Virus record (IMG/VR): IMGVR_UViG_3300042563_002443
DNA from: a virus
DNA length: 64,000 bases
Reading direction: 5' to 3' (one strand)
The stretch's first letter is position 1. Each line of letters opens with the position of its first letter. The notes under the pieces are model-generated. The model worked only from the letters and a program-made list of their open reading frames with translations, made no database searches and was not told the origin of the DNA. Positions 1,110 to 30,105 of this stretch are shown piece by piece. A program made the translations under genes and the position numbers.

Positions 1110-1658
1110 ATGATACGATTAAAAACCCTGTTAACGGAAATTACCTTAAGTGGTGTAGCACCATATGCCACCCAATTCGTCTGGCAAGAAACTGGCAGTG
1201 ATCGTAACGACATTGAATTTGTTGAGGCCCGTGTTACATGTGATGGTGTATTAATGGCATTCAATTTTGATAAACATTGGAGCAATAGTGACGAATTCAA
1301 TTGGGGATTCAGCATAATAGCAACAAGCACCGATACTGCCTCGGATCGATTCAGTTGGACCATATCACATGAACGAAGCGATGCAACCGGTAAAATATCA
1401 TATCTTCGGCTCATGAGCACGGCGCTTGAAGCTGTACTTGATTTTATTCGTATATACGATGTTACATCCATCGATGTTACCGGGTCTGATAATCTACCTG
1501 CAAAGGATGAACAAAAGACTAGAATATATCGAGCACTGCTTGCTGCTAACAAGGGAGAAATTACTACTGCTGGGTTTACGGTATTGGACCGAGCCGGCAA
1601 ATTGTGGCTTGTACGAAGAAGCAGAGCAGACTCAACAGGAATACGAGATACACCATGA
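1110..1658 (+). CDS. hypothetical protein with MIRLKTLLTE leader (putative capsid-internal protein)
   Basis: Start reassigned from 1089 to 1110 on the basis of the shared leader and the promoter box. Confidence 0.7.
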   Translation: MIRLKTLLTEITLSGVAPYATQFVWQETGSDRNDIEFVEARVTCDGVLMAFNFDKHWSNSDEFNWGFSIIATSTDTASDRFSWTISHERSDATGKISYLRLMSTALEAVLDFIRIYDVTSIDVTGSDNLPAKDEQKTRIYRALLAANKGEITTAGFTVLDRAGKLWLVRRSRADSTGIRDTP

Positions 1659-2227
1659 TTAAGCTTAAAGCCTTGTTAACGGAAATGCCCATACACAAAC
1701 TAGTATATGGTCAAATTGGTGCAACGGATCGCATCATCATGTCCGCGGAACCCACAATAACACCACGTGATACCATGCAACCCATTAAAGCTGCATGGAA
1801 GCCTAGAGGGCTTTGGTATGCAATTGGTACGGAGTGGATTGATTGGACACGTGATAACATGCCCGAATGGGAGACGGATTATGCACACCGTGCACTAGTA
1901 GATACATCTAAGATTCTGCGTTTAGGACATGACATGACCATACAAGAATTTGAAAACCTGTTTGGAGCAGAATATGCAACCATTGAAACTGCACCGGTAT
2001 GTCTTGCTATCCATTGGCAGAAAGTTAAAGCATATAAAGGCGCCAAATATGCTGGTATCGAAGTTGTGCATCCATGGGGCGGCATAGGAAGCTGGCTGCG
2101 CACTTGGGACATTTCGAGTGGGTGCATATGGAATCCTGCAGCCATCAAGTCAATCGACATGATCACACTTACAAAAACGCCGGCTACCACTGACGGTATT
2201 GATACACCCGATGATCCGCACATGTAA
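1655..2227 (+). CDS. putative ADP-ribosyltransferase-like protein with MIKLKALLTE leader
   Basis: ATGA overlap with the upstream stop; KPRGLWYA, YAGIEV and GCIWNPAAIKSI resemble the ART-fold GxYx(S/T)...GYDGI...VF.P.QIK pattern; function is inferred. Confidence 0.45.
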   Translation: MIKLKALLTEMPIHKLVYGQIGATDRIIMSAEPTITPRDTMQPIKAAWKPRGLWYAIGTEWIDWTRDNMPEWETDYAHRALVDTSKILRLGHDMTIQEFENLFGAEYATIETAPVCLAIHWQKVKAYKGAKYAGIEVVHPWGGIGSWLRTWDISSGCIWNPAAIKSIDMITLTKTPATTDGIDTPDDPHM

Positions 2228-2305
2228 CTTGTGCGGTCCTGGAAGGACGCACTTAGACTCAAGCAACTTGCGTTCTACAACGTACTAATGTTTTGATATC
2301 AAGTT

Positions 2306-2313
2306 ATATTTAT
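2306..2313 (+). promoter_or_regulatory. putative late promoter box ATATTTAT
   Basis: Followed by AAGGA and ATG 2334. Confidence 0.65.
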
Positions 2314-2333
2314 TGTTATAAAACAAGGAAACC

Positions 2334-2861
2334 ATGATAAAATTAAAAAACATATTAAGTGAAGCATATGCTTGGGAACGTCAAACCGGAAAAGCTTTAC
2401 CTACGTTAGCAGAAGTTCAAGCAGCATATCAAGCAAAAATGCGAGAAGATGCTAACCTAGATCCAGAAGATGATGATCACGAGTATACAGATGACGCAGA
2501 TCTGCCAGAACCATATGATCCGGATGAAGATGACATGTTTGAATCAGCTAAACCTGATTTTTTAGATTTAGATAACGACAACAATAAAACGGAGCCAATG
2601 AAAAAAGCGGCTGCTGATTCTACTGCTGATGGAAACTATGTTAATAAATCTCGAGCAAAAGCACATTTAACTAAGAAAGACTGCACTGTATATGGTATTG
2701 ATGGTTCTGGTAAAGGACATGAAATAACTAGTGCATCGGGTCTAGACAAATACACAAAATTTACAGTTAAATCTAAATCTGTAAAAGAATCATTAAATTC
2801 TAGAATTTTAAATAATCTACGAGGTTCAGAATATATTTTATCAGAAACATTTAAAAAGTAA
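2334..2861 (+). CDS. acidic protein with MIKLKNILSE leader (putative head-internal protein)
   Basis: Shared leader; acidic tract; KPDFLDLDNDNNKTEPMKKA DxDxD-like motif; AAGGA SD. Confidence 0.7.
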   Translation: MIKLKNILSEAYAWERQTGKALPTLAEVQAAYQAKMREDANLDPEDDDHEYTDDADLPEPYDPDEDDMFESAKPDFLDLDNDNNKTEPMKKAAADSTADGNYVNKSRAKAHLTKKDCTVYGIDGSGKGHEITSASGLDKYTKFTVKSKSVKESLNSRILNNLRGSEYILSETFKK

Positions 2862-2865
2862 TATT

Positions 2866-3240
2866 ATGTTTGAAAAATTAATATCGACGCTAATGGCGTC
2901 TAGAGACCAAGCACATGTTTTCCATTGGCAAACAATTGGTGCAGGTTCATTTGCTATGCATACAGCGCTAAATGCATATTATGATGCAATTCCAGGATTA
3001 ACTGATGTATTAGTTGAATCATATCAAGGAAAGCATGGCATTGTTAGAGGATATACTCCAGCTGAACAATTTGATGAATTTGATAAAACAACTGTTATTA
3101 AATACTTTAAAGGTTTATCAATGTATGTAGAACGTGCTTATGATAAATTAGATGCAAAAGATACTTACATATTAAATCAACTTGACAATGTTAAAGAATT
3201 GATTTATTCAACAATTTACAAGCTAGAAAATTTACAATAA
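2866..3240 (+). CDS. ferritin/Dps-like protein (DUF5856-like)
   Basis: AHVFHWQT...HTALNAYYD...DVLVESYQG four-helix metal-ligand pattern. Confidence 0.75.
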   Translation: MFEKLISTLMASRDQAHVFHWQTIGAGSFAMHTALNAYYDAIPGLTDVLVESYQGKHGIVRGYTPAEQFDEFDKTTVIKYFKGLSMYVERAYDKLDAKDTYILNQLDNVKELIYSTIYKLENLQ

Positions 3241-3272
3241 TAAAAAGCGTCTGCTACCTTAGACGGTATAGG

Positions 3273-3309
3273 AAAAACTCGGGGTGTAATGTCCCGGGTT
3301 TTTTTACTG
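3273..3309 (+). terminator. intrinsic terminator with TTTTACTG tail
   Basis: AAAAACTCGGGG...TCCCGGGTTTTTTTACTG. Confidence 0.8.
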
Positions 3310-3325
3310 TTTAATATTTATTAAT

Positions 3326-3448
3326 ATGATGAATAGGTTATTTGCTTTTATTGCGGGATCATTAATGATGATGGTAGCTGGGTTATATTGTATAACAATT
3401 GAAATGTTTTTAATATTAAAGGGTAACAATGTCAAAAGTAAAAGTTAA
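3326..3448 (+). CDS. small hydrophobic membrane peptide (40 aa; not in ORF track)
   Basis: MMNRLFAFIAGSLMMMVAGLYCITIEMFLILKGNNVKSKS; ATATTTAT box at 3314-3321. Confidence 0.45.
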   Translation: MMNRLFAFIAGSLMMMVAGLYCITIEMFLILKGNNVKSKS

Positions 3449-3572
3449 TGTAGCAAAAACTCATTTAGCAAAACCAAAAGTTAAACGACCTGGAGTTCAT
3501 GCTAAAACAAAAATTAGTAGAAGTAAAAATGCAACTAATTATGTAAAGTCTTATATAGCACAAGGAAAATGA
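3429..3572 (+). CDS. small basic protein (47 aa; not in ORF track)
   Basis: MSKVKVNVAKTHLAKPKVKRPGVHAKTKISRSKNATNYVKSYIAQGK; stop overlaps the next ATG (ATGA). Confidence 0.65.
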   Translation: MSKVKVNVAKTHLAKPKVKRPGVHAKTKISRSKNATNYVKSYIAQGK

Positions 3573-4807
3573 TAAAATTAAAACATATATTAACAGAGGC
3601 GACTGACAATTTGCTGCAAACATTTCCTATAGGATCTAAAAATTTCAATATTGGATATGATTCATCAATGAAAGATCCTGAAACGGGTCTTAATCGCGAT
3701 ACTGTTATTCAGAATTCTGATTACGGAGATGGCGATGCTGCTCATAGATCGCGAGGCGGCCATTTAGGCATTGATATTTTTGCGCCAAACGGTGAACCCG
3801 TAGTAGCACCAGTTACTGGTATAGTAATTAAGTCATCTAATCAAGACCGTGGTGCAGGAGGCAAATTTGTTACTATTGATAAAAATGGAATTAGTTTTTA
3901 TCACGCACATTTAGATCAAACATATGTTGAAGACGGTCAAGAGGTAAAAGCTGGCCAATTAATTGGAACATGCGGCAATACAGGAAATGCAGCTGGCACA
4001 CATCCACATGTACATTTTAGTATATTTCGTACAAAAGAAGGATATAGTCGTGGATCTATTAATCCATGGCCTAGTTTGCAAAATGTAATGTATAATGTAA
4101 CAAAATCAGATAAAAATTTAGATGTTTTACATAAAAAATTGCAAAAATTAGGATTTGATTTAGGCAATGAGCAAAAATTTGGTATTAATGGGCCTAAAAC
4201 TCAAACTGCATTGATTAAATTAAATAAAACATACGATCAAAAACAGCAAACAGGCGGACTTACTAGCAAAATTGCATCATTTTTGTCAAGTATTATTAAT
4301 TCTGATATTGCACAATCAGTATTAGGCAATAACAAATCAAAAGATAAGTCAAGCATACAAAATAATGATGTTGCAACCACCGATATGCCATCGCGTGTTA
4401 TTTCATTCTTAAAAAATAAAGGTTTAACTACATCGCAAGCATCAGGAATTGCTGGTAATATGGCAGTTGAGTCCGGATTCGAACCTGATGCAGTTGGCGA
4501 TAATGGCACTTCATATGGATTAGTGCAATGGCACGCTGATAGATGGACTAAATTAAAACAATATTGTGCTAAAAATGATTACGATGTATCGTCTGTTAGC
4601 GGACAATTGGAATATTTATGGTATGAATTAAAATCTAACTCTAGATTAGGATATGCTGAATTGATCAAACAAACAAATCCAAGAGATGCAGCGGAAATAT
4701 TTGCTAAATATTTTGAGAGACCCGCTAATATTTCAGTAAAGCGCATGGATAATGCAGAAAACTATTATAACGAATATACAAAAAATGCAGCAGACAAAAT
4801 TGCATAA
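3569..4807 (+). CDS. peptidoglycan hydrolase: M23 peptidase + PG-binding-like linker + phage tail-lysozyme domain, with MIKLKHILTE leader
   Basis: HLGID and HPHVHF M23 zinc motifs; LQKLGFDLG...GINGPKT; GIAGNMAVESG...GLVQW...FERP lysozyme motifs. Confidence 0.85.
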   Translation: MIKLKHILTEATDNLLQTFPIGSKNFNIGYDSSMKDPETGLNRDTVIQNSDYGDGDAAHRSRGGHLGIDIFAPNGEPVVAPVTGIVIKSSNQDRGAGGKFVTIDKNGISFYHAHLDQTYVEDGQEVKAGQLIGTCGNTGNAAGTHPHVHFSIFRTKEGYSRGSINPWPSLQNVMYNVTKSDKNLDVLHKKLQKLGFDLGNEQKFGINGPKTQTALIKLNKTYDQKQQTGGLTSKIASFLSSIINSDIAQSVLGNNKSKDKSSIQNNDVATTDMPSRVISFLKNKGLTTSQASGIAGNMAVESGFEPDAVGDNGTSYGLVQWHADRWTKLKQYCAKNDYDVSSVSGQLEYLWYELKSNSRLGYAELIKQTNPRDAAEIFAKYFERPANISVKRMDNAENYYNEYTKNAADKIA

Positions 4808-4818
4808 CAAAGGAAACA

Positions 4819-5343
4819 ATGAATTTATTTAATATTAACAATCCAAAACACAAACAAATTTTGCGTGAAGAACTAGCACGTGCTAAACGCATTTTACGCG
4901 AAGGTTACTCGGCTGATATAATTTGGGATAAGATGACCAAAGAAGATCGCGAAACTGCATTATACGTTGCCAAAGCAACTAATCCTGAACAATTAATTGA
5001 CATAACATGGGATGAAGTTCCTGCAGATATTCAAGATTTAATTGATCTATCAGACTTTGAACTTGCAAAAGATGATCGAGAGGGTAGAAATTTATTAAGT
5101 GGTATTGATACTGCATTAAAAACTCCCGGGAACAAACAATTTGCAGACAAATTTTTAAAAAAAATAGGTCGCACTTCTTTGCGAGATATTACAATAAAAC
5201 AAGCAACTCAATTGAATCTAGGAATAGGGCAATATATTGCTAGCAAAAATAAAAATTCCGGCATCGATGTTACCAATATTGATTGGAAAGATTATGATGG
5301 TACACCAAATACAAGAGATTGGCGCGGCGGCCGCATAAGTTAG
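4819..5343 (+). CDS. hypothetical protein
   Basis: 174-aa ORF with AAGGA SD; ILRE motifs near the N-terminus. Confidence 0.7.
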   Translation: MNLFNINNPKHKQILREELARAKRILREGYSADIIWDKMTKEDRETALYVAKATNPEQLIDITWDEVPADIQDLIDLSDFELAKDDREGRNLLSGIDTALKTPGNKQFADKFLKKIGRTSLRDITIKQATQLNLGIGQYIASKNKNSGIDVTNIDWKDYDGTPNTRDWRGGRIS

Positions 5344-5344
5344 T

Positions 5345-5563
5345 ATGATTTGGTATAGAAACTATAATGCTATGAATAATTTAAATTTTATTTTGTTGAA
5401 TGTAACTGATAAAAATGCAAATATTATTCCAATGTATGTAAATAAAAATCATATAGTAAGAATATGGGAACGAGATACCAAAATTATAATTGAACTAACA
5501 GATTATACAGAATTAGAAATTTGCAACGAGAACATAAACATATTTATGGACCGTTTTATGTAA
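5345..5563 (+). CDS. small hypothetical protein
   Basis: ORF fills the gap between neighbours. Confidence 0.55.
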   Translation: MIWYRNYNAMNNLNFILLNVTDKNANIIPMYVNKNHIVRIWERDTKIIIELTDYTELEICNENINIFMDRFM

Positions 5564-5598
5564 TGCAAATATTTATATATAAATAAAAAAAGGTTAAT

Positions 5599-5784
5599 AT
5601 GACATCACAAGAAATTTATGAAGCAATGGAAGCACATTGGTTAACATTTAAAGAAAACCATGATCGTTTTCAAGAAAAACAAGTTAAAGCTGCAGGCGTT
5701 AGAGCTAGAAAATCAATTAATGAATTGAAAAAACTAGTTAGCAAATATCGTTCAACACAATTAGCTGAAGCAAAAGCCGCATAA
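5599..5784 (+). CDS. histone H1-like (Hc1-family, Bacteroidota-type) small DNA-binding protein
   Basis: KAAGVRARKSINELKKL matches the KAAGxRARK family motif; late box at 5569-5576. Confidence 0.7.
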   Translation: MTSQEIYEAMEAHWLTFKENHDRFQEKQVKAAGVRARKSINELKKLVSKYRSTQLAEAKAA

Positions 5785-7259
5785 TGAAAAAACTAGAATA
5801 TATAATTAAACATGCATTAAAAAGTCTTAAGGAACAGGCAGAGCCCGTTGCAAAAGAAACTGATAATGCAAAATCAGACGCTGAAGACTCACCATTCACT
5901 CCAGCAGAAGAGAAATTTCTCGGAAAGTTTGATGCATATGGGACAACCCATATTGGAATTATATATTCACTATCAGATATTGGTATTAGGGAATTTATAA
6001 CGCGAAGCGGCGCAGATCTTAATATTAGTCCTGATATTTTAATTAGTTTATTGCGCAAAAAAACAATTAAATTGGTTCCTTATACCGGATGGGGCAGAAA
6101 CAATGATTATACAATTGAATTGCAATTATCATTGGATGATGTTAAAGGATTAGGAGCACAAGATAAAGCAAAAGTAGAAACAGGAAGTACTGCAAGTGGT
6201 GCCGCTTCATCACCTTCAGCAACACCTGAGCCACCAATACCCGGGCCTGAAGTTTCATGGGTTATTCCGTACGGTGAATTAATCAAAGAATCTACAACAA
6301 TTGCAAAACAATTAATTGTTGAAAAGTCTAAAAAGAAAAGTCCTGATGCAACCATATATGTTGATAAGTCTCGCATATTAAAACGATTGCCTAAGGGATA
6401 TATAACCCAATTAGAACGCATTATCGATATGATGGGCAAACGCGCACATACCGCACACGAAAAACAGCGATTGGTTGCTGACATTCTTGACAACTTAGCA
6501 GTTAACTTGAATTTAACAGATAAACAAATACGCAAATCTTTTGAATTTTATAAAAATCAAAACAAACTTAAATCAGTTATTGATGATTTAAATGAAAATA
6601 CAAATTTAATGTTAGAATCATATGTAATTGTAGAATCAACAGAACATATAGATTATTTAACAAAAAAAGGATTTGCTCCATATATTAATAATGCATTTGC
6701 GTTTTGGAATAAAATGCCCGGAGCAATTGATAACGGCATGGTCATGACAAATTATTCGGAAGATGTATTTTTCAAAGTTATTAATACATATTTAATTAAC
6801 AGTAATGTTGCAGACAAACGAAAACAAGCAATTACAATTGATGCAATAGCTTATATTAATCAACAAGCCGGCAAATTACAAGGACAAGGATTTAATCAAT
6901 CTGCTAAGGATTTTTGTAAAGACTGGTTTGAAGAATGGTATTTTTTAGAAATACCATTAATGGTTGCTGGCCAAAGTATTGCTACGTTTGATCAACTGCT
7001 TAATTGTGAGTTAATATATAATTATGTTATAAAATCTTCAACTGATTATGATTCTACTAAACAAACAAAAGCCTTAAAGGATTCATTAAATAAATTGCGT
7101 ATCGGGTATTTAGAAATATCAGATTTACAAACCGGCGCCGGCAAGGATCCATTTTATCCAACATATAATACATCAGATATTCAAAAACTAGTCGCTGAAC
7201 TATTAGCTCCATATAAATCAAAAGTCGCAAAAAATGTTGTAAGACATAAAACGTTATAA
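5784..7259 (+). CDS. hypothetical protein (491 aa, possible virion protein)
   Basis: Long ORF with a Pro/Ser linker and several (L/I)xE sites. Confidence 0.75.
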   Translation: MKKLEYIIKHALKSLKEQAEPVAKETDNAKSDAEDSPFTPAEEKFLGKFDAYGTTHIGIIYSLSDIGIREFITRSGADLNISPDILISLLRKKTIKLVPYTGWGRNNDYTIELQLSLDDVKGLGAQDKAKVETGSTASGAASSPSATPEPPIPGPEVSWVIPYGELIKESTTIAKQLIVEKSKKKSPDATIYVDKSRILKRLPKGYITQLERIIDMMGKRAHTAHEKQRLVADILDNLAVNLNLTDKQIRKSFEFYKNQNKLKSVIDDLNENTNLMLESYVIVESTEHIDYLTKKGFAPYINNAFAFWNKMPGAIDNGMVMTNYSEDVFFKVINTYLINSNVADKRKQAITIDAIAYINQQAGKLQGQGFNQSAKDFCKDWFEEWYFLEIPLMVAGQSIATFDQLLNCELIYNYVIKSSTDYDSTKQTKALKDSLNKLRIGYLEISDLQTGAGKDPFYPTYNTSDIQKLVAELLAPYKSKVAKNVVRHKTL

Positions 7260-7299
7260 CTTTTAAATTAAAAAATAATGCGATAGGTAGCATACTATA

Positions 7300-7328
7300 T
7301 TGGAATTACAAATAATTTTTCTTATAAT
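7300..7328 (+). promoter_or_regulatory. sigma70-like promoter TTGGAA-N17-TATAAT
   Basis: Exact 17-bp spacer; heads the accessory cluster 7365-10410. Confidence 0.7.
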
Positions 7329-7364
7329 ATCAATAAGTTATAATAATTAAAAACAAATAAAAAA

Positions 7365-7574
7365 ATGAGTTATTACACAGCAAAAGTCCAACTAACGGAC
7401 GAAGTAGACACTCCTAAGGGTGTAAAAATCAAAAAAACTACAGAAACATATCTTGTAGAAGCATTATCGGTAACAGAAGCCGAAGCTAAAGTTATTAAAG
7501 ATTTTACCGGGTACATGTTTGATTTTGAAGTAAAATCAGTGAATGCCAGTAAAATTGTTAAAATTTTAGAATAA
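7365..7574 (+). CDS. DUF4494-like protein (Bacteroidota family)
   Basis: KKTTETYLVEALSVTEAEAKV...FEVKSV motif. Confidence 0.7.
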   Translation: MSYYTAKVQLTDEVDTPKGVKIKKTTETYLVEALSVTEAEAKVIKDFTGYMFDFEVKSVNASKIVKILE

Positions 7575-7873
7575 TGGGATATGTAGAAGGAAACACGGTA
7601 ATTGTCACAACAGAAGGCAAAAACCAAGTAGCAGTCGTATTAGATCGACGAGTTATCAATAAAGTATCCGTATACGATGTTTTATTAGAAAGTCGCACAG
7701 CACTAGTTATGATGACTACTAATTCTAGCAATAGAAACTATATCAATAAATTATTAACTGCAAAGCTTTGTGATACGGATGCAATTCAAACAACTATTCC
7801 ATACAAGGAATTGGTAGCAAATGATTTGATTCCACATCTAGATGCAAATTCAGCAGGTAAAGCTTCTTGGTAA
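7574..7873 (+). CDS. hypothetical protein
   Basis: Translationally coupled ORF (TAATG). Confidence 0.7.
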   Translation: MGYVEGNTVIVTTEGKNQVAVVLDRRVINKVSVYDVLLESRTALVMMTTNSSNRNYINKLLTAKLCDTDAIQTTIPYKELVANDLIPHLDANSAGKASW

Positions 7874-8160
7874 TGAAATCTATTGATTCTATACAAAAAC
7901 ATGTTAATAAATATTATCCTGGGGCGATGCTTAATATGTCGCCTAAGGGTCAATATTATGTAGGGTGGCACGATCAAAATTTAAATGACATATTTCTATT
8001 TGACGATTGTGATACAATAGAAGAAGCATGGAATAATGCACTTTTAACTATGCGCACCGAACGTAACATGAACCGTACACATCCTTTAAAGAAAATGATG
8101 TCGGACGAAAAAAAAATGCAAAATAAAGAACGTATTGCTAATCGAATTCATAAACGATAA
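7873..8160 (+). CDS. hypothetical protein
   Basis: TAATG coupling; ATG at 7873. Confidence 0.7.
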   Translation: MKSIDSIQKHVNKYYPGAMLNMSPKGQYYVGWHDQNLNDIFLFDDCDTIEEAWNNALLTMRTERNMNRTHPLKKMMSDEKKMQNKERIANRIHKR

Positions 8161-8816
8161 TGGAACAACAAAACTTACAAGACAAAATTTTAGGTATCAT
8201 TGATACCGCAACGGAAGAAAAACAGCGTTGGGATGAATTAACACCAACAGACCCGGATTACATGATGCATAGTCCAAAATCAGTTGGCTATCATGAAACA
8301 AATGAACAATTGTATTTGTTCCAAAATTTACTAGTAGGATTCACTCCTTCGCAATCTATTTTAGATATAGGAAGTGGTCGTGGTGATATGTGTAATTTCA
8401 TCACGGAATTTTTTGGAGAACCAGCACCATGGACAGGAATTGATCATAATCCAATCATGGCTGATCTAGCTAAAGAAAAATATGGCTATGATACAACCAT
8501 CGGAGCATTTGAAACCGCAAAATTAAACAAACATGATTGGGTAGTAGCATCAGGAGTCTTTACTCAACGAAGATGTGAAACTGAAGACAAAGATTTGCAA
8601 AAGCTATTTGATGATATTGATATCATGTATGAGGCATCTAATACAGTAGTAGCATTTAATTTATTATCGCCTATAGGCACCAAACACCACGAAGGCTTTT
8701 TTTATGTACATCCAGGACTTATGATGGACCTGCTTATTGAAAAGTATCGATATGTGACAGTCCGACACAATTATTCAAAAGACGTATATACAATATTAAT
8801 TTATAAATTCCAATAA
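8160..8816 (+). CDS. class I SAM-dependent methyltransferase
   Basis: Motif I SILDIGSGRG, motif II TGID, DWVVASGVF. Confidence 0.85.
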   Translation: MEQQNLQDKILGIIDTATEEKQRWDELTPTDPDYMMHSPKSVGYHETNEQLYLFQNLLVGFTPSQSILDIGSGRGDMCNFITEFFGEPAPWTGIDHNPIMADLAKEKYGYDTTIGAFETAKLNKHDWVVASGVFTQRRCETEDKDLQKLFDDIDIMYEASNTVVAFNLLSPIGTKHHEGFFYVHPGLMMDLLIEKYRYVTVRHNYSKDVYTILIYKFQ

Positions 8817-8818
8817 CA

Positions 8819-9214
8819 ATGACAACAAAAAGTATTAATCATCCATGGGGCGTAAGCGACGAATTTAGAACTCGCTATGGAAATACATGGGCAGATTTAG
8901 ATTTCGTATTCGAAGCTAAGATTTCAGCCGAAAATTTTAGTGATGATCCAATGAACACAACAATTGGAGAATTGCATATTGCAGGACAACATATTTTAAT
9001 GCGATACAAAGATTTAATTGCATATGCAAAATTATATAATACATTGTCTGATAATTTGTATGCTGAAAAACTAAGCAAGGATACTACTATGGAAATTTCC
9101 ATTAAAGGACGCAATTTCATGTTAAATAAACAAGAAATTGGCAAATTATCTACAACGTTAGATGATGCAGTAAAAACAACAATAAAGGGATATCAGTTAG
9201 GTTTATATATATAA
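8819..9214 (+). CDS. hypothetical protein
   Basis: ORF in operon-like run. Confidence 0.7.
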   Translation: MTTKSINHPWGVSDEFRTRYGNTWADLDFVFEAKISAENFSDDPMNTTIGELHIAGQHILMRYKDLIAYAKLYNTLSDNLYAEKLSKDTTMEISIKGRNFMLNKQEIGKLSTTLDDAVKTTIKGYQLGLYI

Positions 9215-9218
9215 TAAA

Positions 9219-9404
9219 ATGCCTATATCAACGTACGTATTTTATTATAAAGCAGATAGTACTTGCGAACCCGTAGGTCGCGTTAAGGCAACTAGTTTGT
9301 CTGAAGCGCAACATTTTATTATGGAATTGAAGCAGTTACCAAAAGATGTGATAACTGAATTATTTGAAATAAAACAGGTATTAACTTATGAAACCAATAT
9401 TTGA
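9219..9404 (+). CDS. small hypothetical protein
   Basis: ORF in operon-like run. Confidence 0.6.
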   Translation: MPISTYVFYYKADSTCEPVGRVKATSLSEAQHFIMELKQLPKDVITELFEIKQVLTYETNI

Positions 9405-9828
9405 TTTAATGACTGTTAACTATGCAGAATATAGTTACTTCAAGCAATTACCAAAAAAAGAACGAATATTATTTTTCATGGAATTATATGAAGCTGCGTT
9501 ATATCGATATTCTAATAATAACTTGGATCTAGGTAAATTTTTTGCAACATTAAAAGATCAAATTTTAGAGTCAAACGAACTTGATACAGAATCTGTTTCG
9601 ATGCCTAGGGGTTCTGATCATATTGAAGTTTTGATTGATGACGAAAATTTAATGATTGAATCAAACAGTTTAAAAGCAGTTCGGCACATCGTATATAAAT
9701 TCATCGAATCGGGATATATTCTTCAACGCGACAAAAACATGGAAAAAGCATTTAAGCGCGACAAAATTACAAGATATATGAGGGTCTTTAAAATTATAGA
9801 TCAGATATCATGTATATGTACTAACTAA
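9388..9828 (+). CDS. hypothetical protein
   Basis: ORF in operon-like run. Confidence 0.7.
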   Translation: MKPIFDLMTVNYAEYSYFKQLPKKERILFFMELYEAALYRYSNNNLDLGKFFATLKDQILESNELDTESVSMPRGSDHIEVLIDDENLMIESNSLKAVRHIVYKFIESGYILQRDKNMEKAFKRDKITRYMRVFKIIDQISCICTN

Positions 9829-9834
9829 TATATA

Positions 9835-10410
9835 ATGGCAAAACAAAAAATATCAGAAGCTATTCAAAAACAATTTGACAAAGTGCATTTTCAAATAGAA
9901 ACACCAGTCTTTTTTTCTTGGTTGGGGTATAAACAAGTAGGTTATGTTAAAAAATTTAAAAAAGCTGGTTGGGGAATTCAATATACTGTGGAATCGCCTG
10001 CAGGTGCTAAGTATCCGTGCGGCATTGAAATTAAGGGGCAAAAGACTCAGTATAACACAGGATGCATCTACCTTGAAGACACTAGATCCATTGGGCAAGA
10101 ATCTCTTATCAAACGCTTCCAAAACGATGCTAAGCCCAGAACAACTACAACAGTTCCTCTCGTCATCGATCGGTCAACGAATAAAAGCTCGAGCAATAGT
10201 AACTTACTCAGAAGAAATAATGATGAAGCTAGTAGAAAAGATTCAAACAGTGGATCCGCAAGAAACAGCACAAATTTGGACGTTAAACTTGGCATTGATG
10301 GAGACAATAAACACGATACACCAAAACGAAGAGTTTCTAAACCCAAACAGTTAGATATAGCAATACAACGTCAACGAGATTTTTTAAGTGGATTTGTAAA
10401 AAAAGATTAA
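9835..10410 (+). CDS. hypothetical protein (beta-rich N-terminus, low-complexity C-terminus)
   Basis: 191-aa ORF. Confidence 0.65.
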   Translation: MAKQKISEAIQKQFDKVHFQIETPVFFSWLGYKQVGYVKKFKKAGWGIQYTVESPAGAKYPCGIEIKGQKTQYNTGCIYLEDTRSIGQESLIKRFQNDAKPRTTTTVPLVIDRSTNKSSSNSNLLRRNNDEASRKDSNSGSARNSTNLDVKLGIDGDNKHDTPKRRVSKPKQLDIAIQRQRDFLSGFVKKD

Positions 10411-10428
10411 ACTTTTTTTGCGTTCTGG

Positions 10429-10457
10429 TTGGATATTAATATTATATATCTTATTAT
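10429..10457 (+). promoter_or_regulatory. sigma70-like promoter TTGGAT-N17-TATTAT
   Basis: Same motif and spacing as the other six copies. Confidence 0.6.
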
Positions 10458-10489
10458 ATAGTATAATTAACCACTTAAAAATTTATATC

Positions 10490-10912
10490 ATGAAAAATTT
10501 AATTCTTTCCGCAATTTTTGCAGTAGTAGCATTTTCAAATAATGCTCAAGTAGTTACCATTACTGTATTTCAAACAGCGGATGCTGTCGGATCAAATGAT
10601 AGATCACTATCTGAGATTTTAAATCACCCGGATATAGAACTACCGATTGATTTACCACTTACATTTTCATATAAACTTGATTTTACACATAATGTGTGTA
10701 TTTTTAAAACTGCAGGCGGCGAACTAATTCGAGTTAATTTTATTGTTAACAATAAAAAATCAGATAAAGATTTTGAAATTGAATTTACAGACCCTAATAA
10801 TGAATTTGATTTCATATATGGAATTGTAGTTTGCAATAGCAACGCTGCCTATTTTGAAAATAATGGAAGTATAACTGAATTATTAGTATTTAAAGCTTTT
10901 ACAATTTTTTAA
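10490..10912 (+). CDS. secreted/periplasmic protein with signal peptide
   Basis: MKNLILSAIFAVVAFSNNA|Q signal peptide with Gln after the cleavage site, typical of Bacteroidota; start moved to ATG 10490. Confidence 0.7.
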   Translation: MKNLILSAIFAVVAFSNNAQVVTITVFQTADAVGSNDRSLSEILNHPDIELPIDLPLTFSYKLDFTHNVCIFKTAGGELIRVNFIVNNKKSDKDFEIEFTDPNNEFDFIYGIVVCNSNAAYFENNGSITELLVFKAFTIF

Positions 10913-10926
10913 ATTGTTTTTATGAA

Positions 10927-10958
10927 CAGTAAAAAAGCCCATCTCTGCAGGTGGGCTT
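10927..10958 (-). terminator. intrinsic terminator with TTTTACTG tail (minus strand)
   Basis: Reverse complement AAGCCCAC-ctgcagag-ATGGGCTTTTTTACTG, downstream of the minus-strand gene. Confidence 0.8.
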
Positions 10959-10975
10959 ACTACTTTAATATATTT

Positions 10976-11605
10976 TTAATTTTTAACAGGGGGAGCTGGT
11001 TTCACAGGAGTTGCTGCTTTAGGAACTATTAATGCTGTCTTAGCTGCAACTATTGGAACTAGATATACGTTTCGAAAATGATCCCAATATGGTATTTGTT
11101 TAGCTTTATTTTCAGGATCTGGTGCAATCATTTTTTGCCAATCTTTAATTCTACTTTGAAAATCACTTAATCCCATTGAAAAATTAGTATCTGCACTAGA
11201 ATTATATGCTTTACTAAGGACTGGTGCTGACTTGGCTAAAATTCCAACAACATCTGTGTATTTTAACGAATTTAAAAATTTCGGCGTATATCCTTGGTGT
11301 GCCATGGCCAACATGATACATTTCATTAAATTAAATCGTTCAGTGCTCCATTTTGCTCCAGCAGCTGCTCTGTTAGCTTCAGGCGCTCCATAAACCCATG
11401 GTGGCGTTGCACCGACAGTTTGCGGAAAATTTGTAACGTACGTGTCAAACGCGAATTGATCTTTAAAGTTTAATGCATATGTAATACCGTCTTGTCCTTT
11501 AAAGCCTTCTGTTAACAGTGACGATTCATTAATTTTTTTAACATCTGACTTGGATAAATTCTTTACGCCAAATCGAAGCATATTTTCAGCTAATGTATTT
11601 TTCAT
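10976..11605 (-). CDS. hypothetical protein; the only well-supported minus-strand gene
   Basis: Has its own minus-strand ATATTTAT box, AAGGA SD and terminator; LLTE site near the N-terminus. Confidence 0.8.
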   Translation of the reverse strand: MKNTLAENMLRFGVKNLSKSDVKKINESSLLTEGFKGQDGITYALNFKDQFAFDTYVTNFPQTVGATPPWVYGAPEANRAAAGAKWSTERFNLMKCIMLAMAHQGYTPKFLNSLKYTDVVGILAKSAPVLSKAYNSSADTNFSMGLSDFQSRIKDWQKMIAPDPENKAKQIPYWDHFRNVYLVPIVAAKTALIVPKAATPVKPAPPVKN

Positions 11606-11630
11606 TCGTATTCCTTTTAGTTTCTTTTAT

Positions 11631-11638
11631 ATAAATAT
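11631..11638 (-). promoter_or_regulatory. putative late promoter box ATATTTAT (minus strand)
   Basis: Reverse complement ATATTTATATAAAAGAAACTAAAAGGAATACGAATG; motif orientation follows gene orientation. Confidence 0.7.
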
Positions 11639-11672
11639 AAGCAAAAAAAAAATAAAAGAAAAATAAAAAATA

Positions 11673-11701
11673 TTTGATTTTCCAAATAAATTTCATATTA
11701 T
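11673..11701 (+). promoter_or_regulatory. sigma70-like promoter TTTGAT-N17-TATTAT
   Basis: Upstream of uvsE. Confidence 0.55.
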
Positions 11702-11714
11702 ATATAAAAATACT

Positions 11715-12740: not shown

Positions 12741-12771
12741 TATATTTATAATAAATAAAGAAAGGTTACAT

Positions 12772-12942: not shown

Positions 12943-12958
12943 TCAAAAAAACAATGTT

Positions 12959-13123: not shown

Positions 13124-13134
13124 TTCATTATATT
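13106..13134 (+). promoter_or_regulatory. sigma70-like promoter TTGGAA-N17-TATATT
   Basis: Shares AATAATTCATTATATTA with the promoter at 32729. Confidence 0.65.
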
Positions 13135-13151
13135 ATTAGTAAAACTAATTT

Positions 13152-17222: not shown

Positions 17223-17252
17223 TAACTACAATATTTATATAAAAATGATATA

Positions 17253-18208: not shown

Positions 18209-18209
18209 T

Positions 18210-20090
18210 ATGGAAACTAAAAAAGATATATCATATTTAGGAAAAGACTTTGGTCAGTTTAGGAAAGGGCTAATTGATTTTACTAAACAATATTTTCCAG
18301 ATACATATGTAGACTTCAATGAATCATCGCCAGGAATGGTATTCTTAGAATTAGCTGCGTATGTAGGCGATGTGTTATCATACTATGCAGATTCAAACTT
18401 AAAAGAGTCTATGTTAGAACAAGCATCGGAACGAGCTAATATATTTGATATTGCAAAATCATTGGGATATAATCCTAATAATGTTGTCCCGGCATATGTA
18501 ACATTGGATGTATTTCATATTATACCATCGATTGGAGCAGGAGCTGCAGTAGCACCGGATTTTAATTATGCATTATCAATTAAACCTGGTATGCGCGTTA
18601 AACAAAATAATGGTGCTGCAATATTTAGAACATTGGATAGCATAGATTTTGCATATTCATCGTCGACTAGTCCTACCGAAATAACCATATATGAAAGTAA
18701 TGCTACAACAAAATTACCAACATATTATTTGCTTAAAAAACAAGTGCGTGCAGTGTCAGGAGACGTTAAAACAGCAACATACAGTTTTACAACACCATTA
18801 GCATATGATAAAATAGTATTACCTGATACAAATATTTCGGAAATTATTTCAGTTGTTGAATCTGATGGAGATAATTGGTATCAAGTACCATACTTGGCTC
18901 AAGATACTATTTTTGAAGATGTTCCAAATTTGGCAGAAAACGACCCAGATCTGGCACAATATCGATCATCATCTCCTAGTTTATTAAAATTAAAGAAAAC
19001 TGCAAAACGTTATATAACACGTTTACGTAGCGATAACAAATTAGAATTACAATTTGGAGCAGGCATCTCAGATAATAATGATGAAGAAATAGTTCCAAAT
19101 CCAGATAATGTAGGAAATGGATTAGCAGGATTTCGTCGTAATGTTGATGTTGATATTGACCCATCAAATTTTTTATATACTAGAACATATGGACAAGCAC
19201 CATCTAATACTACATTAACAATAACATATACTATAGGAAATGGAATTGTAGATAATGTCCCTGCAAATGTATTAACACTAGTTAATTTTGTTGAATATAA
19301 TGATGATATTAATACATCAACCAGTGGCAATCTAGTTAATTTTGTTAAATCAACAATTGCTGTTAATAATAGTGGGCCTGCTTCTGGAGCTAAAACTTCT
19401 GATACTTTGCAAGACATTAAAAATAATGCGTTAGCTAATTTTGCAACTCAGAATCGTTTAGTAACAAGAGAAGATTATATAATTCGCGCATATTCAATGC
19501 CAGCAAAATTTGGTAGTGTTGCAAAAGCATATATTGTACCAGATGATCAAATAACACAAACAAATTATCAACAATCTAGAATTGCTAATCCATTAGCAAT
19601 GAACATGTATGTTTTAGGATTTAATGATTCAAAACAATTATTTGAATTAAATCAAGCAGTAAAAGAAAATTTAAAAACATATCTTAACTATTATCGTATT
19701 TTAACAGATGCTGTTAATATTAAAGATGCATTTATTATTAATTTAGGTATTGATTTCGAAATTTCGGTTTTGCCAAATTATAATAGCAATGAAGTTTTAT
19801 TGAAATGCATTAATGCATTAAAATCAATGTTTAATGTTGATCGATGGCAAATTAATCAACCAATCATAAAATCAGATATAACTACTACGTTAGCTAATAT
19901 AAAAGGAGTTCAGACAGTAGTCGGAGCAACAATTTCAAATCTATATGATATTACATTTGGATATTCTGGCAATGTTTATGATATAAATTCTGCTACTAAA
20001 AATGGAGTAATATATCCTTCATTAGATCCTAGTATATTTGAAGTAAAATTTCCAAATCGAGACATTAAAGGTCGCGTAGTAAATCAGTAA
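18210..20090 (+). CDS. baseplate wedge protein gp6-like
   Basis: DFNESSPG...LAAYVGDVLSYY, LQFGAG, QNRLVTREDY. Confidence 0.9.
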   Translation: METKKDISYLGKDFGQFRKGLIDFTKQYFPDTYVDFNESSPGMVFLELAAYVGDVLSYYADSNLKESMLEQASERANIFDIAKSLGYNPNNVVPAYVTLDVFHIIPSIGAGAAVAPDFNYALSIKPGMRVKQNNGAAIFRTLDSIDFAYSSSTSPTEITIYESNATTKLPTYYLLKKQVRAVSGDVKTATYSFTTPLAYDKIVLPDTNISEIISVVESDGDNWYQVPYLAQDTIFEDVPNLAENDPDLAQYRSSSPSLLKLKKTAKRYITRLRSDNKLELQFGAGISDNNDEEIVPNPDNVGNGLAGFRRNVDVDIDPSNFLYTRTYGQAPSNTTLTITYTIGNGIVDNVPANVLTLVNFVEYNDDINTSTSGNLVNFVKSTIAVNNSGPASGAKTSDTLQDIKNNALANFATQNRLVTREDYIIRAYSMPAKFGSVAKAYIVPDDQITQTNYQQSRIANPLAMNMYVLGFNDSKQLFELNQAVKENLKTYLNYYRILTDAVNIKDAFIINLGIDFEISVLPNYNSNEVLLKCINALKSMFNVDRWQINQPIIKSDITTTLANIKGVQTVVGATISNLYDITFGYSGNVYDINSATKNGVIYPSLDPSIFEVKFPNRDIKGRVVNQ

Positions 20091-20100
20091 AGGAATATAA

Positions 20101-21219
20101 ATGTTTAGAATATTTTATGCAGCAAAAGACGCAACGTTATATGAATCAATACCAGCATATAATACTGGTCTAGACGAAATTTTAGAAGTTGGTAAACGAT
20201 TGGGCACTGACGGTGCTACTTTGTTAAAGTCTAGAAGTGCTATTAAATTTGATATGACTGAAATTTCTGCATCATTATCTACATATGGAAAGTCAGTTAC
20301 TGATTGTAAATTTGTATTGCAATTATTTACATCTGATGCAAAAAATCTTCCTGCAGAATATTCGGTTCATGCAAAATTAGCTGGCCAGGATTGGACTAAT
20401 GGCACTGGATATCAATCTGCGTTAACAACAAATGGTGTAACATGGAACGGTCCTTATAGTGGCTCTTCTTGGATTTCATCAAGTCAAAACATAAAAATTG
20501 GAACTAGCACATTGTATGTATCAGGAAGTGGTACTGGTGGCTCTTGGTTGTTTCAATCTAGTTCGGTTGGATCTACTGCAGGACTAATATCATCTGAATC
20601 ATTTTCTTATCGTACCACTGATATTAATATGGATGTTACAAATGCATTAAAAGTATGGTTAAGCGGAAGTGGTGGTGCCTCAATAACCAATAATGGATTC
20701 TTAATTCAATTTTCTGATACTGATGAATTAAATGATACAGTAACTGGATTTGTTAGATATTTTAGTCGAGAAACACATACCATATATGTTCCTAAATTAA
20801 CAATGTATTTTGATAATAGTGCATTTGTTACTGGATCATTGACAGCATCTAATTTAGAATCATATATAGTTTATACTAAAATTAAACCGCAGTATAAAGA
20901 TACTGAGATTGCTAAAATTAGAATATATGCACGAGACAAATTTCCTCAAAAATCACCAACAAATTTATTTCCTATAGAAACAATTAAATATTTGCCGTCA
21001 ACTACTACGTATGCGGTATTTGATGCTCAAACAGATGAAGCTATAATTCCATATGATGATATTTATAATAAAGTAAGTTGTGATAGTACCAGTAATTATA
21101 TCTATATAGACATGAATGGGTTTATGCCAGAACGTTATTATCGGTTAGAGCTAAAAATCAAAGAAGGATTTACTGAACAGTATATCAACGACAAAATTAA
21201 TTTTAAAGTAGTTAGATAA
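20101..21219 (+). CDS. virion structural protein (DNRLRE-like N-terminal domain)
   Basis: KDATLYE...NTGLDEILEV...RSAIKFD...NNGFLI...FSRET...PKL pattern; within the baseplate cluster. Confidence 0.6.
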   Translation: MFRIFYAAKDATLYESIPAYNTGLDEILEVGKRLGTDGATLLKSRSAIKFDMTEISASLSTYGKSVTDCKFVLQLFTSDAKNLPAEYSVHAKLAGQDWTNGTGYQSALTTNGVTWNGPYSGSSWISSSQNIKIGTSTLYVSGSGTGGSWLFQSSSVGSTAGLISSESFSYRTTDINMDVTNALKVWLSGSGGASITNNGFLIQFSDTDELNDTVTGFVRYFSRETHTIYVPKLTMYFDNSAFVTGSLTASNLESYIVYTKIKPQYKDTEIAKIRIYARDKFPQKSPTNLFPIETIKYLPSTTTYAVFDAQTDEAIIPYDDIYNKVSCDSTSNYIYIDMNGFMPERYYRLELKIKEGFTEQYINDKINFKVVR

Positions 21220-27923: not shown

Positions 27924-27942
27924 AATAATACACTGAATTAGG

Positions 27943-27982
27943 CCCTGTTATATTTATATTAAATGTAGCAGGGTTTTTACTG
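27943..27982 (+). terminator. terminator hairpin containing a late promoter box, with TTTTACTG tail
   Basis: CCCTGTTATATTTA-tat-TAAATGTAGCAGGG (14 bp, 2 G:U) then TTTTTACTG; ATATTTAT at 27950-27957. Confidence 0.75.
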
Positions 27983-27985
27983 ATT

Positions 27986-29560
27986 ATGGCAGAATCTAGA
28001 ATTATAAATACAGAAACGTATCAAGGATTATATCCTACGGTCTTCAAAAAAATTGACAGTTCAGACGTATCTGTCAATCCGTTTAAGGCATATAAATCTT
28101 GGTCTATTTATTCAGGCAGTTCTACTTCTAGCGCATTACCATTAAATGGTGTATATACCGACATCAATAATTTACCGGCACTCGGATCTGAATTAACATA
28201 CAATGATTTGATGAATATTGATGGAACATTGCAATCAATAACATATTATTCAATCAATCATTTATATTACAAATATAAAGATCAGCCAGCAAAAACATTT
28301 GGTCCGACCAATTTAAATCGCACAAAAAAAGCTTTGTATCAATCGGCATCAATTATTGCAATTCCACAATTAAAAATTGGAGAAGCAATTAAACCGGCTT
28401 CATTTGCATTAACAACAACTGGTTATTCATTAGCATCTGATGTATATAGCAATGTATATGATACTGCATTTAATACTAGTTCAATCGTTGGTGGCGAAAC
28501 ATTGTATGAAGGATTCAATGAATATTTTGATACAAGCAGAATTAAATATACATCGGAAAACGTAACATATGTGCCTGGCGTTAAAACTAGCACGGGGTCA
28601 ACACTATCAATTGGTTTAGCTGCTAAATTTAATCTTAAAGGATATATTGATATTCCAATTGATGGATATTATGATCGTGATCATGATTATGCAATTTCAT
28701 TGTTTATAAGTTCTTCTGCACATGGGTCTAGCGATAATCAATTGATACTAGCAAAAGCATCAGGTTCTTCACAAGCACAATATCCATTTAAAATTGAATT
28801 AAGTGGTAGTAATAGTATTGTATTTTCTGCAGCAGGAAGCACATCATTTAAAACACAAGTTACTAGTTCAGTATTATCTGGAGATTGGAATCATGTTGTT
28901 TGCCAAAAATCAGGCAGTTTATTAAAAATACATGTTAATGGAACATTGAATAATTCAGTAACCGATTCGTTATTAATAAATACAATGTCTCCGTTTACTG
29001 CTAGCGCCAGAATTGATAATACTAGCACAGTAAAAATAGGCGGTTATGCCAGCGGATATTCAGGTCTAAGTGCTGTACTAGATGAAATTAGAGTCTTTAA
29101 TAAGTCGCTTACAACTGCCAATATAAGTGCGTTATCCGACCGTAGCGAGGGTGGTACATTTTTGCAAACAGCAAATGTAGGCAACGTATTTGGCAAACAT
29201 GGCGTAGTTGTAATATCAACTCCGGATTATCGATATAACGGCCTTTTGTCTAGTCCATATACTGCAAGTTATCGTAGTACAGTTACTATACATGAATTAA
29301 GTGCTATTGCCCGTTTAGATGCTGGTGATTTTAATATGTCGACCAATTTATCATTGACACAAGATGATGATCAAACATATTTTCCATTTGTTAGTGGCAG
29401 TGATTTTGCTCCGTATATAACTACAATTGGTTTATATGATGATGCAGGACAACTAGTTGCAATTGGAAAATTAGCTCAACCAATTAAAAAAAGAAATGAT
29501 GTTGATATGAATTTTTTGATTCGCATTGACTTGGATACAAATATTGCGTTTAAAGGATAA
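27986..29560 (+). CDS. LamG-domain tail/baseplate structural protein
   Basis: WNHVVCQKSG...LDEIRVFNKSL LamG motifs; C-terminal YITTIGLYDD...AIGKLAQP paralogous to the previous gene. Confidence 0.75.
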   Translation: MAESRIINTETYQGLYPTVFKKIDSSDVSVNPFKAYKSWSIYSGSSTSSALPLNGVYTDINNLPALGSELTYNDLMNIDGTLQSITYYSINHLYYKYKDQPAKTFGPTNLNRTKKALYQSASIIAIPQLKIGEAIKPASFALTTTGYSLASDVYSNVYDTAFNTSSIVGGETLYEGFNEYFDTSRIKYTSENVTYVPGVKTSTGSTLSIGLAAKFNLKGYIDIPIDGYYDRDHDYAISLFISSSAHGSSDNQLILAKASGSSQAQYPFKIELSGSNSIVFSAAGSTSFKTQVTSSVLSGDWNHVVCQKSGSLLKIHVNGTLNNSVTDSLLINTMSPFTASARIDNTSTVKIGGYASGYSGLSAVLDEIRVFNKSLTTANISALSDRSEGGTFLQTANVGNVFGKHGVVVISTPDYRYNGLLSSPYTASYRSTVTIHELSAIARLDAGDFNMSTNLSLTQDDDQTYFPFVSGSDFAPYITTIGLYDDAGQLVAIGKLAQPIKKRNDVDMNFLIRIDLDTNIAFKG

Positions 29561-29562
29561 TC

Positions 29563-30105
29563 ATGATACGATTAAAATCATTATTGGAAATAGTAGATAC
29601 AGATTTAAAGCGTTTATTAGATAAAATTAAAAATAAGCAATTTAGATTTATTGGTGCTGGAGATAACGGTCGTGTTTATGAAATAGATGGCGAAGATCGT
29701 TGTTTTAAAATTACACAAGAACGAGATGAGTTTGACGTTGCTACGGTAATAGTAGGTAGGTGGTCTGAATTTACAACGTTTATTCCAATTTATTATGTTG
29801 ATAAAAAACAACATATGTACATAATGGCAAACGCGGAATCGTTGCCACAGGCGGATAAAATAATGATTGATAAATTCATGAACAAATTTGCTCAATATGC
29901 ACGTGCAGAAGGCGGAGAAGTTACTATTTTTGAATTTCTAGATAATGATGGAGCAAGAAATGTTAATCAAAAACTAGTTAATTTTTTACGGGCTTTGCAA
30001 CAAGACATTAACAAAACCGGAATTGAAGATTTAGATTTAGATTTAGATTTTAATTCCAGCAATATCATGTTATGGGATGGTAACATGGTAATGGTTGATT
30101 GGTGA
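29563..30105 (+). CDS. minimal protein-kinase-like (ePK/APH fold) enzyme with MIRLKSLLE leader
   Basis: Gly loop IGAGDNGRVY, FKIT lysine, helix-C Glu, catalytic DFNSSN, terminal MVDW. Confidence 0.75.
   Translation: MIRLKSLLEIVDTDLKRLLDKIKNKQFRFIGAGDNGRVYEIDGEDRCFKITQERDEFDVATVIVGRWSEFTTFIPIYYVDKKQHMYIMANAESLPQADKIMIDKFMNKFAQYARAEGGEVTIFEFLDNDGARNVNQKLVNFLRALQQDINKTGIEDLDLDLDFNSSNIMLWDGNMVMVDW

Follow-up and report, generated by a model that had tools for sequence, protein, structure and literature searches.

Five unrelated proteins encoded in a 64,000-nucleotide stretch of the IMG/VR virus record IMGVR_UViG_3300042563_002443 (the whole stretch is called the window below, and positions are counted from its first letter) begin with the same leader of 9-10 residues, with the consensus M-I-(K/R)-L-K-x-(L/I)-L-x-E. 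This leader is probably a capsid-targeting propeptide of the T4 kind, as had been proposed in a first-pass annotation made from the DNA letters. The five tagged genes, whose products are called cargoes A to E, are the following (nt, nucleotides):

1110..1658, plus strand: cargo A, 182 residues; leader MIRLKTLLTE at nt 1110-1139; predicted new N-terminus ITLSG
1655..2227, plus strand: cargo B, 190 residues; leader MIKLKALLTE at nt 1655-1684; possible ADP-ribosyltransferase (ART)-superfamily fold
2334..2861, plus strand: cargo C, 175 residues, very acidic; leader MIKLKNILSE at nt 2334-2363; own ATATTTAT box at 2306
3569..4807, plus strand: cargo D, 412 residues; leader MIKLKHILTE at nt 3569-3598; dual cell-wall hydrolase
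29563..30105, plus strand: cargo E, 180 residues; leader MIRLKSLLE at nt 29563-29589; last gene of the unit after the box at 27950

The six-frame translation of the window contains five matches only to the pattern MI[KR]LK.[LI]L.?E, all on the plus strand, and each of them coincides with the ATG of an open reading frame (ORF) of 175-412 residues (1110, 1655, 2334, 3569 and 29563). For gene 1110, this ATG was taken as the start and not the in-frame ATG at 1089, because a ATATTTAT box lies between both. When we clustered the first 10 residues of every ATG-initiated ORF, requiring dissimilar downstream sequence, the only real cluster was made of these five proteins. In 300 draws of random 9-mers from the interior of these ORFs, no cluster had more than three members, which rules out a chance origin of the five-member cluster. 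By BLASTP, the mature parts of the five tagged proteins are five separate families. Thus, pattern search, blind clustering and family analysis all confirm the earlier claim that unrelated proteins share this leader. The codons of the leader vary synonymously (ATA/ATT, CGA/AAA/AAG, TTA/CTT, CTG/TTG/TTA/ATA and GAA/GAG) while the residues are kept, indicating that conservation acts at the peptide level.

Judged from its genes, the window is that of a distant T4-superfamily myovirus. Among deposited phages, Microcystis phage Mel-JY01 and Flavobacterium phage immuto have the most similar capsid proteins (about 56% identity), and a megablast of the region against GenBank phages gave no match. A complete 159.6-kb IMG/VR genome, here G002, is collinear with the window, with orthologues for 61 of the 71 genes and a capsid protein that is 77% identical. 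The order of the head-module genes is the same as in T4. The genes that identify the phage and its head module are listed here:

18210-20090: gp6-like baseplate wedge
46440-48089: large terminase
48140-49984: portal
50026..50874, plus strand: conserved head-module protein after the portal; begins MKKLKH, with an LFE motif at residues 15-17
51560..52189, plus strand: prohead maturation protease of the T4 gp21 family (Peptidase_S77; phrog_207, 1.2e-55; PF03420, 6.5e-32)
52191..52568, plus strand: small head-module protein adjoining the protease, with the loose leader MNSPNLKRILEMITE
54054..55040, plus strand: scaffold candidate at the gp22 position, from synteny with T4 genes 20-67-68-21-22-23; helical, charged, with repeated h-x-E (h, hydrophobic residue)
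55069..56730, plus strand: major capsid protein (gp23-like; phrog_138, 3.6e-68)

The gp21-like protease that the first-pass annotation had reported is therefore present, as attested by PF03420, phrog_207 and the aligned His and Ser motifs. It shares 33% identity with T4 gp21, and its ELDHP and GISSRGLGS segments align with His85 and Ser140 of gp21, which we take to be the catalytic residues. From its sequence, the enzyme looks active. Its specificity also looks conserved, since h-x-E is found at the sites homologous to those of T4 in the capsid, scaffold and protease proteins. The T4 gp23 site FLTE/AEIGG (the slash marks the cut) aligns with QLVKE/ASS in the window, where the predicted cut falls after Glu57 (nt 55237-55239), and two capsid propeptide sites upstream of Glu57, LLE/G and h-h-E/NQ, also align with T4 gp23. 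The capsid cut motif, which reads QLISE in Mel-JY01, is conserved in that phage, in immuto, in G002 and in six other lineages, and the NQAxxLLxE/ site recurs in the capsid proteins of six other lineages. The scaffold candidate begins MAKSDLLKE (LLKE-9), to be compared with MLKEQLIAE (LIAE-9) for T4 gp22, and the protease itself begins MSKQLILE, with ILE at residues 6-8 as compared with LIE-9 in gp21. Orthologues of the 50026 product in G002, immuto, Mel-JY01, G009 and G013 retain KHSKxKNTGhhhE, and from its gene position this product may be a core protein. Family searches with the 52191 product gave no match; its orthologue in G002 retains PNLKxILE. The head module also holds, between the protease and the scaffold candidate, a gene for a phage-encoded ribosomal protein bS21 (53621-53866; PF01165, 4.2e-11). 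Two more head-module proteins are encoded at 50874 and 52610.

The leader itself has the build of the T4 tag, with hydrophobic residues conserved at 4, 7 and 8 and Glu at 10 in its logo. In AlphaFold2 (AF2) models of cargoes B and E, it forms a detached, low-confidence short helix outside the folded domain. We then considered the residue that follows the Glu. Among 125 distinct junctions, this residue is L/F/W/Y/R/K in 16 (12.8%) against a background of 30.8% (p = 2e-6), and it is never Pro. At positions 2-10 after the Glu, the same residues make up 24-38%, and the depletion of N-degron residues is limited to the single position after Glu. This bias could be that of a new N-terminus.

The tag is not confined to the window. 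G002 carries the leader on about 15 ORFs across its genome; some encode orthologues of cargoes A, C, D and E, and others, among them those for a GH24 lysozyme-LysM protein and a DUF5872 protein, add new cargo. Mel-JY01 is the only cultured carrier, with three tagged ORFs that start at 60276, 60923 and 62733 of PP395634, and a tblastn search of cultured phages with the kinase-like cargo E and cargo B found no usable relative. When IMG/VR was scanned with a single codon variant of the leader, at least 118 stretches matched. From IMG/VR, we collected at least 143 tagged ORFs from at least 86 sources, which BLASTP clustering sorted into at least 70 cargo families. Among the tagged ORFs listed, 136 of 143 have Glu at position 10 and 139 of 143 have Leu or Ile at position 8; the Pfam domains among the tagged families listed are ART-PolyVal, DnaJ, CCA-adding enzyme, NUDIX, HD, P-loop kinase, lysozyme and tRNA-ligase CPD.

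Cargo B shows that a cargo can also change its leader. Its homologues at 63 viral loci stand under at least eight lineage-specific N-terminal leaders. Four of these are MIKLKxLLTE, MKLLFENWRKYL..E, MKxhIKxLLRE and MNLQENIQRIKxMMGL; the other four are MKSYKSFxNE, MKTEEELIWE, ..ELAGIITE and the T4-like MKTLSPFDEFIAE (P0014, whose start resembles the T4 capsid-targeting sequence, CTS). Each cargo B leader is also found on unrelated neighbours of the same contig, up to ten of them in 10 kb, and nearly all leaders end in h-x-E. In alignments, homology between differently tagged versions of cargo B begins directly after the Glu. The metagenomic protein P0019 (330 residues) starts with MIKLKSLLE and has a second leader, VKLKDLLLE, at the junction before its family-B domain; by sequence it looks like two fused tagged cargoes with an internal protease site. 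Peptidase_S77 is encoded in 8 of the 16 cargo B contigs, covering five leader classes, and the eight contigs with no match are all incomplete (9-68% estimated completeness). With about 15 ORFs in G002, at least 70 cargo families in IMG/VR and leader swaps at the Glu, the portability that had been claimed for the tag holds.

Comparison of relatives further shows a turnover of the cargo in which cassettes are exchanged at the tag. Contig L003 matches the window at 92-97% DNA identity, but the match is interrupted from nt 1141, where the first leader ends, to nt 1634, 21 nt before the second leader. Between the two breaks, L003 has two diverged cargo A paralogues of 38-39% identity. Genes 1110 and 1655 have the two highest GC contents of the window (42.6% and 45.7%, for a gene mean of 33.2 +/- 4.0%), which suggests recent capture under the resident tag. 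As a separate observation, a G-run-rich non-coding island (781-1097) lies directly before these two genes, and 781-2227 looks like a recently acquired block.

More than one leader class can be found on a single contig: on IMGVR_UViG_3300025280_000024 (L086/L089), ten MKLLFENWRKYL genes stand beside five MKITKTQLKQIIKEEL genes at 2800-20300. The head-module protein adjoining the protease, in the L086/L089 lineage and in G013, starts like the MKITKTQLKQIIKEEL class. A comparison of the head modules of seven lineages gave h-x-E sites in all of them and a MKITKTQL-type start on a head-module protein in G009 and G013; it gave no clean pairing of leader class with receptor candidate.

As for the cargoes, Pfam and PHROGs gave no match for A, C, E or most of the G002 cargoes. 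For cargo A, the ESM Atlas yielded viral hypothetical proteins and a DUF6934-like lead only. Cargo B had been called an ART-like enzyme. Its AlphaFold model has a predicted local distance difference test (pLDDT) score of 80.6, and nearly all of its top 50 matches in VIA-align have the ART fold (RES, ParT, NatT, MbcT, diphtheria toxin, PARP), with Z of only 5.0-5.7; with Foldseek, the E values against ART folds are above 0.05. A search for an R-S-E or H-Y-E triad among the invariant residues of cargo B (K49, Y55, E136, D152, S155 and C157) found no match to a known triad. The proposed ART-like fold thus receives weak support. The orthologue of cargo C in G002 begins MKKLKDILSE.

Cargo D had been described as a dual cell-wall hydrolase, and it indeed contains a Peptidase_M23 domain (PF01551, 2.3e-23, 82.6 bits for a cut-off of 28.7) and a Phage_lysozyme2 domain (PF18013, 1.3e-33, 116.6 bits for a cut-off of 28.2), both above the Pfam cut-offs. 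Its orthologue in G002, 53% identical, begins MKLKHILNE. The start of the gene is overlapped by ATGA by a 47-residue, very basic ORF (3429-3572, isoelectric point (pI) 11), which has a conserved counterpart in G002 (57% identity).

The gene for cargo E is conserved in the clade, with 780 homologues of 180-181 residues. Among 20 sampled homologues (62-81% identity to the window protein), M1, I2, R3, L4, K5, L8 and the Glu of the leader are invariant. The AF2 model (pLDDT 81.8) has Foldseek top matches that are all kinase-like (CDC7, PRPK, RIO1, APH; probability 0.9-1.0, E about 1e-3), and the invariant residues are G33 D34 N35, K49, E56, D162 to N167, and D179. The model and these residues, which fit a Gly-rich loop, a beta-3 Lys and D-x4-N, support cargo E as a putative minimal protein-kinase-like protein ending at the metal-binding Asp. 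The kinase of the first-pass annotation is in this way upheld as a kinase-like fold.

The tagged genes had also been said to lie in units behind late boxes. The ATATTTAT sequence is the most enriched 8-mer upstream of plus-strand genes, present in 16 upstream regions; in genes for portal, neck, baseplate and tail proteins, it lies 12-36 nt ahead of the ATG. Judged from the genes that it precedes, it would be a late promoter. Four such boxes head the units that hold the five tagged genes:

1098-1105, plus strand: ATATTTAT box
2306-2313, plus strand: ATATTTAT box
3314-3321, plus strand: ATATTTAT box
27950-27957, plus strand: ATATTTAT box

In G002, a ATATTTAT box is found within 60 nt of 6 of 11 tagged genes and of 32 of 211 other genes (p = 0.004); within the window alone, the contrast between tagged and other genes is not significant. 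The position of the boxes ahead of the units is thus as had been stated, and their enrichment holds for G002 and not for the window taken alone. In three tagged genes, the box stands exactly 4 nt before the ATG (ATATTTATnnnnATG; window 1098-1112, and G002 at ~19600 and ~105710 in reverse-complement coordinates). Since a 4-nt gap leaves no room for a 5' untranslated region, these late mRNAs may be leaderless.

If the leader is a capsid-targeting propeptide, the tagged genes would be transcribed late, behind the ATATTTAT boxes, and by analogy with T4 the short N-terminal helix would attach the pre-protein to the scaffolding core during prohead assembly. The gp21-family protease would then cut after the Glu, at the motif that we observe, and free the cargo inside the head, from which it would exit with the DNA at the next infection. 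The cargo delivered in this way would comprise the kinase-like cargo E, the dual peptidoglycan hydrolase D, cargo B with its possible ART fold, and cargoes A and C. As the tag is short and autonomous, new genes would enter the cargo set when cassettes are exchanged at the tag. We also propose, with slightly less than even confidence, that aquatic T4-superfamily phages share a general address-label system legible in the sequence, in which a lineage has one or a few short N-terminal tags ending in h-x-E, genes that pass from one lineage to another change their tag at the cleavage Glu, and cassettes recombine at the tag.

Several other explanations of the leader were considered. It could be a propeptide that the protease removes and that has no targeting role, for example one that holds hydrolases or a kinase inactive up to the time when the maturation protease works, the proteins never entering the head. 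Both h-x-E and an S77 protease would fit such a role equally, and several of the cargoes are potentially self-damaging enzymes. However, enzymes this diverse would hardly all be inhibited by a helix of 10 residues lying free of the fold, the positions 2-5 that are dispensable for cutting are conserved as well as the cut site, and the T4 protease works inside the prohead, so that its substrates must be there (PMC5694885). We therefore consider latency alone to be unlikely. A tag recognized by a machine other than the capsid, such as a modifying enzyme (e.g., radical-SAM), a chaperone or an export route, would be in line with the DnaJ domains carried by two tagged families, and shared N-terminal tags on unrelated phage proteins can serve other partners. 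The leader is nevertheless too short and too charged for a signal peptide, and the Glu boundary, the bias after the Glu and the likeness to the phage's own head proteins would be left unexplained, which makes this a quite improbable explanation. A radical-SAM-linked tag in particular was rejected: PF04055 is absent from Mel-JY01, G009 and G007 and below threshold in G002, and the window contains no CxxxCxxC.

The conserved start might also act in the nucleic acid. As an element of the mRNA or of translation initiation, on A/U-rich late mRNAs and with bS21 or leaderless transcripts involved, it would make the peptide incidental; ATG ATA AAA TTA AAA is indeed A/U-rich, the phage encodes bS21, and the box stands 4 nt before the ATG in three tagged genes. 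Against such an element, synonymous variation occurs while the amino acids are kept out to Leu8 and Glu10, one leader copy lies inside a protein, where two domains meet, there is a bias in the residue after the Glu, and the most highly expressed late genes (capsid, baseplate) have no leader, so that we give it very little credence. Finally, the leader DNA could be chiefly a recombination handle for cassette exchange, the peptide being merely tolerated, as it is precisely at the leader boundaries that the window and L003 cease to be homologous. Yet 30 bases with variable codons are a poor substrate for recombination, distant lineages retain the peptide while the DNA differs, and exchange of cassettes at the tag is equally expected of a capsid-targeting propeptide; of all the explanations, we find this one the hardest to believe.

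Some observations weigh against the capsid-targeting propeptide that we prefer. The sister phage immuto has the protease and none of this tag; two of its proteins share a different start, MKKQILSEQFxRMQxLAGIITE. Of the five mature window proteins, four are acidic (pI 4.6-5.6), whereas the internal proteins of T4 are basic. The kinase-like gene is a conserved core gene that ends a tail/baseplate unit, and its product could be a tail component, while the tagged peptidoglycan hydrolases, including the GH24 and LysM protein of G002, could be lysis enzymes. A preference of a protease subsite could account for the bias after the Glu as well as a new N-terminus could. One tagged gene of G002 lies on the opposite strand and has no box, and the lateness of the tagged genes is itself deduced from the company that the box keeps. 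Packaging, cleavage and injection of the tagged proteins, and the host-takeover or anti-defence roles that had been put forward for them, are, for their part, predicted by analogy with T4.

Besides the five strict leaders, the first-pass annotation had listed looser versions at 30130, 31332, 52191, 4819 and, on the minus strand, 11605. They exist as written, and as a class they are a mixed group barely above chance, for which reason the class was rejected. An h-h-x-E motif is found in the first 17 residues of 11 of the 71 genes, compared with 6.8 +/- 2.2 for internal windows, and the excess corresponds to the strict leaders. How easily such matches arise is illustrated by MKNLKLLQLLE at 32765, which heads a Toprim primase, and the match at 31332 received no support. 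The loose matches at 50026, 51560, 52191 and 54054 stand apart in that they are head-module proteins, whose T4 counterparts are known substrates; those at 52191 and 54054 are putative head-core or scaffold proteins. The minus-strand match belongs to a second leader class:

10976..11605, minus strand: second leader class member, MKNxLxENMLRFGxKNLS, with its own ATATTTATA box and with LAE and LLTE motifs

Between this protein and its G002 counterparts, similarity is confined to the first 28 residues. The second class, MKNxL(S/A)ENMLRFG(T/V)KNLS, heads unrelated minus-strand genes that have a ATATTTATA box. In G002 (reverse-complement coordinates), it comprises three minus-strand genes (30652, 32046 and 33245) and a plus-strand hybrid at 97970, MIKLKNILAENMRRFGTKNLSE, in which the second-class leader is fused behind a MIKLKNIL leader. 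Elsewhere in the window, a single ORF of 1046 residues (33700-36840) joins an SbcD-like part (13-347) to an SbcC-like part (372-1042), which are separate genes, 47 and 46, in T4.

The reference system is that of T4, for which Mullaney and Black reportedly described in 1996 a CTS on the internal proteins IPII/IPIII, IPI and Alt that is removed by gp21. The start MKTYQEFIAE of IPII/IPIII occurs twice in T4, and our clustering test applied to T4 yields only this pair. A CTS on diverse internal proteins is well established for T4 (PMC3012670, PMC9026906, PMC5694885), and in the tag of IPIII, residues 4 and 7 matter for targeting while 8 and 10 matter for processing (PMC9026906). The leader described here resembles it in being a 10-residue N-terminal tag on unrelated late proteins, with hydrophobic residues at 4, 7 and 8, Glu at 10 and an (L/I)-x-E ending, in the presence of an S77 protease in a head module of the same gene order; in both systems, the cargo sets vary between relatives while the tag is constant. 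The ten-residue propeptide of T4 gp24, MAKINELLRE, is close to the leader of the window. In T4, a tag with the change E10D would still be packaged but escape cutting. The two tags have, however, no sequence similarity, as MIKLKxLLxE and MKTYQEFIAE share only Met1, the hydrophobic spacing and Glu10. The cargo here is also larger and more enzymatic (~15 tagged proteins per genome, with at least 70 families in all, while the same clustering gives a pair in T4) and mostly acidic, several tag classes occur, sometimes in one genome, and the system is known from sequence alone.

In the giant phages phiKZ, 201phi2-1 and SPN3US, many head-internal proteins are likewise cut after Glu by a diverged gp21 homologue, and paralogues have identical N-termini to which a targeting role has been attributed by inference; their propeptides are mostly longer than 100 residues and end in (S/A/G)-x-E (PMC5694885), whereas those described here are T4-sized with Leu or Ile at P3. 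Packaging into capsids was also predicted for polyvalent proteins and solo effector domains (Iyer, Burroughs, Anand, de Souza and Aravind 2017, PMC5512222). Their domains overlap with those of our tagged families (ART-PolyVal, lysozymes, NUDIX, HD, kinases), and the same delivery with the DNA in phage-host conflict was proposed; polyvalent proteins string such domains in one polypeptide, while here the domains are mostly encoded by separate genes, each with its tag. A literature search that included the leader strings found no paper describing the leader. Compared with T4, the differences lie in the sequence of the tag, in how many cargoes there are and in their enzymatic character, in tag classes that coexist and are exchanged, and in the phage host range.

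If the tag works as in T4, a motif of ten residues would make it possible to predict, for an uncultured phage, the proteins that travel inside the capsid and are at work during the first seconds of an infection. Dozens of hypothetical proteins would then become a defined set of candidates for host-takeover or anti-defence functions, gene capture and exchange would follow a testable rule, with cassettes bounded by the tag, and new packaging tags would be available for loading foreign proteins into the capsids of non-coli phages. A mechanism known mainly from T-even coliphages would thereby be extended, at a larger scale, to Bacteroidota-type freshwater and marine phages. Should the address-label system prove true, the proteins co-delivered with the DNA (ARTs, kinases, tRNA-repair enzymes, NUDIX and HD proteins, wall hydrolases and proteins of unknown function) could be listed from metagenomes alone, and this delivered set would be far larger than that of the internal proteins of T4 and a rich source of counter-defence functions.

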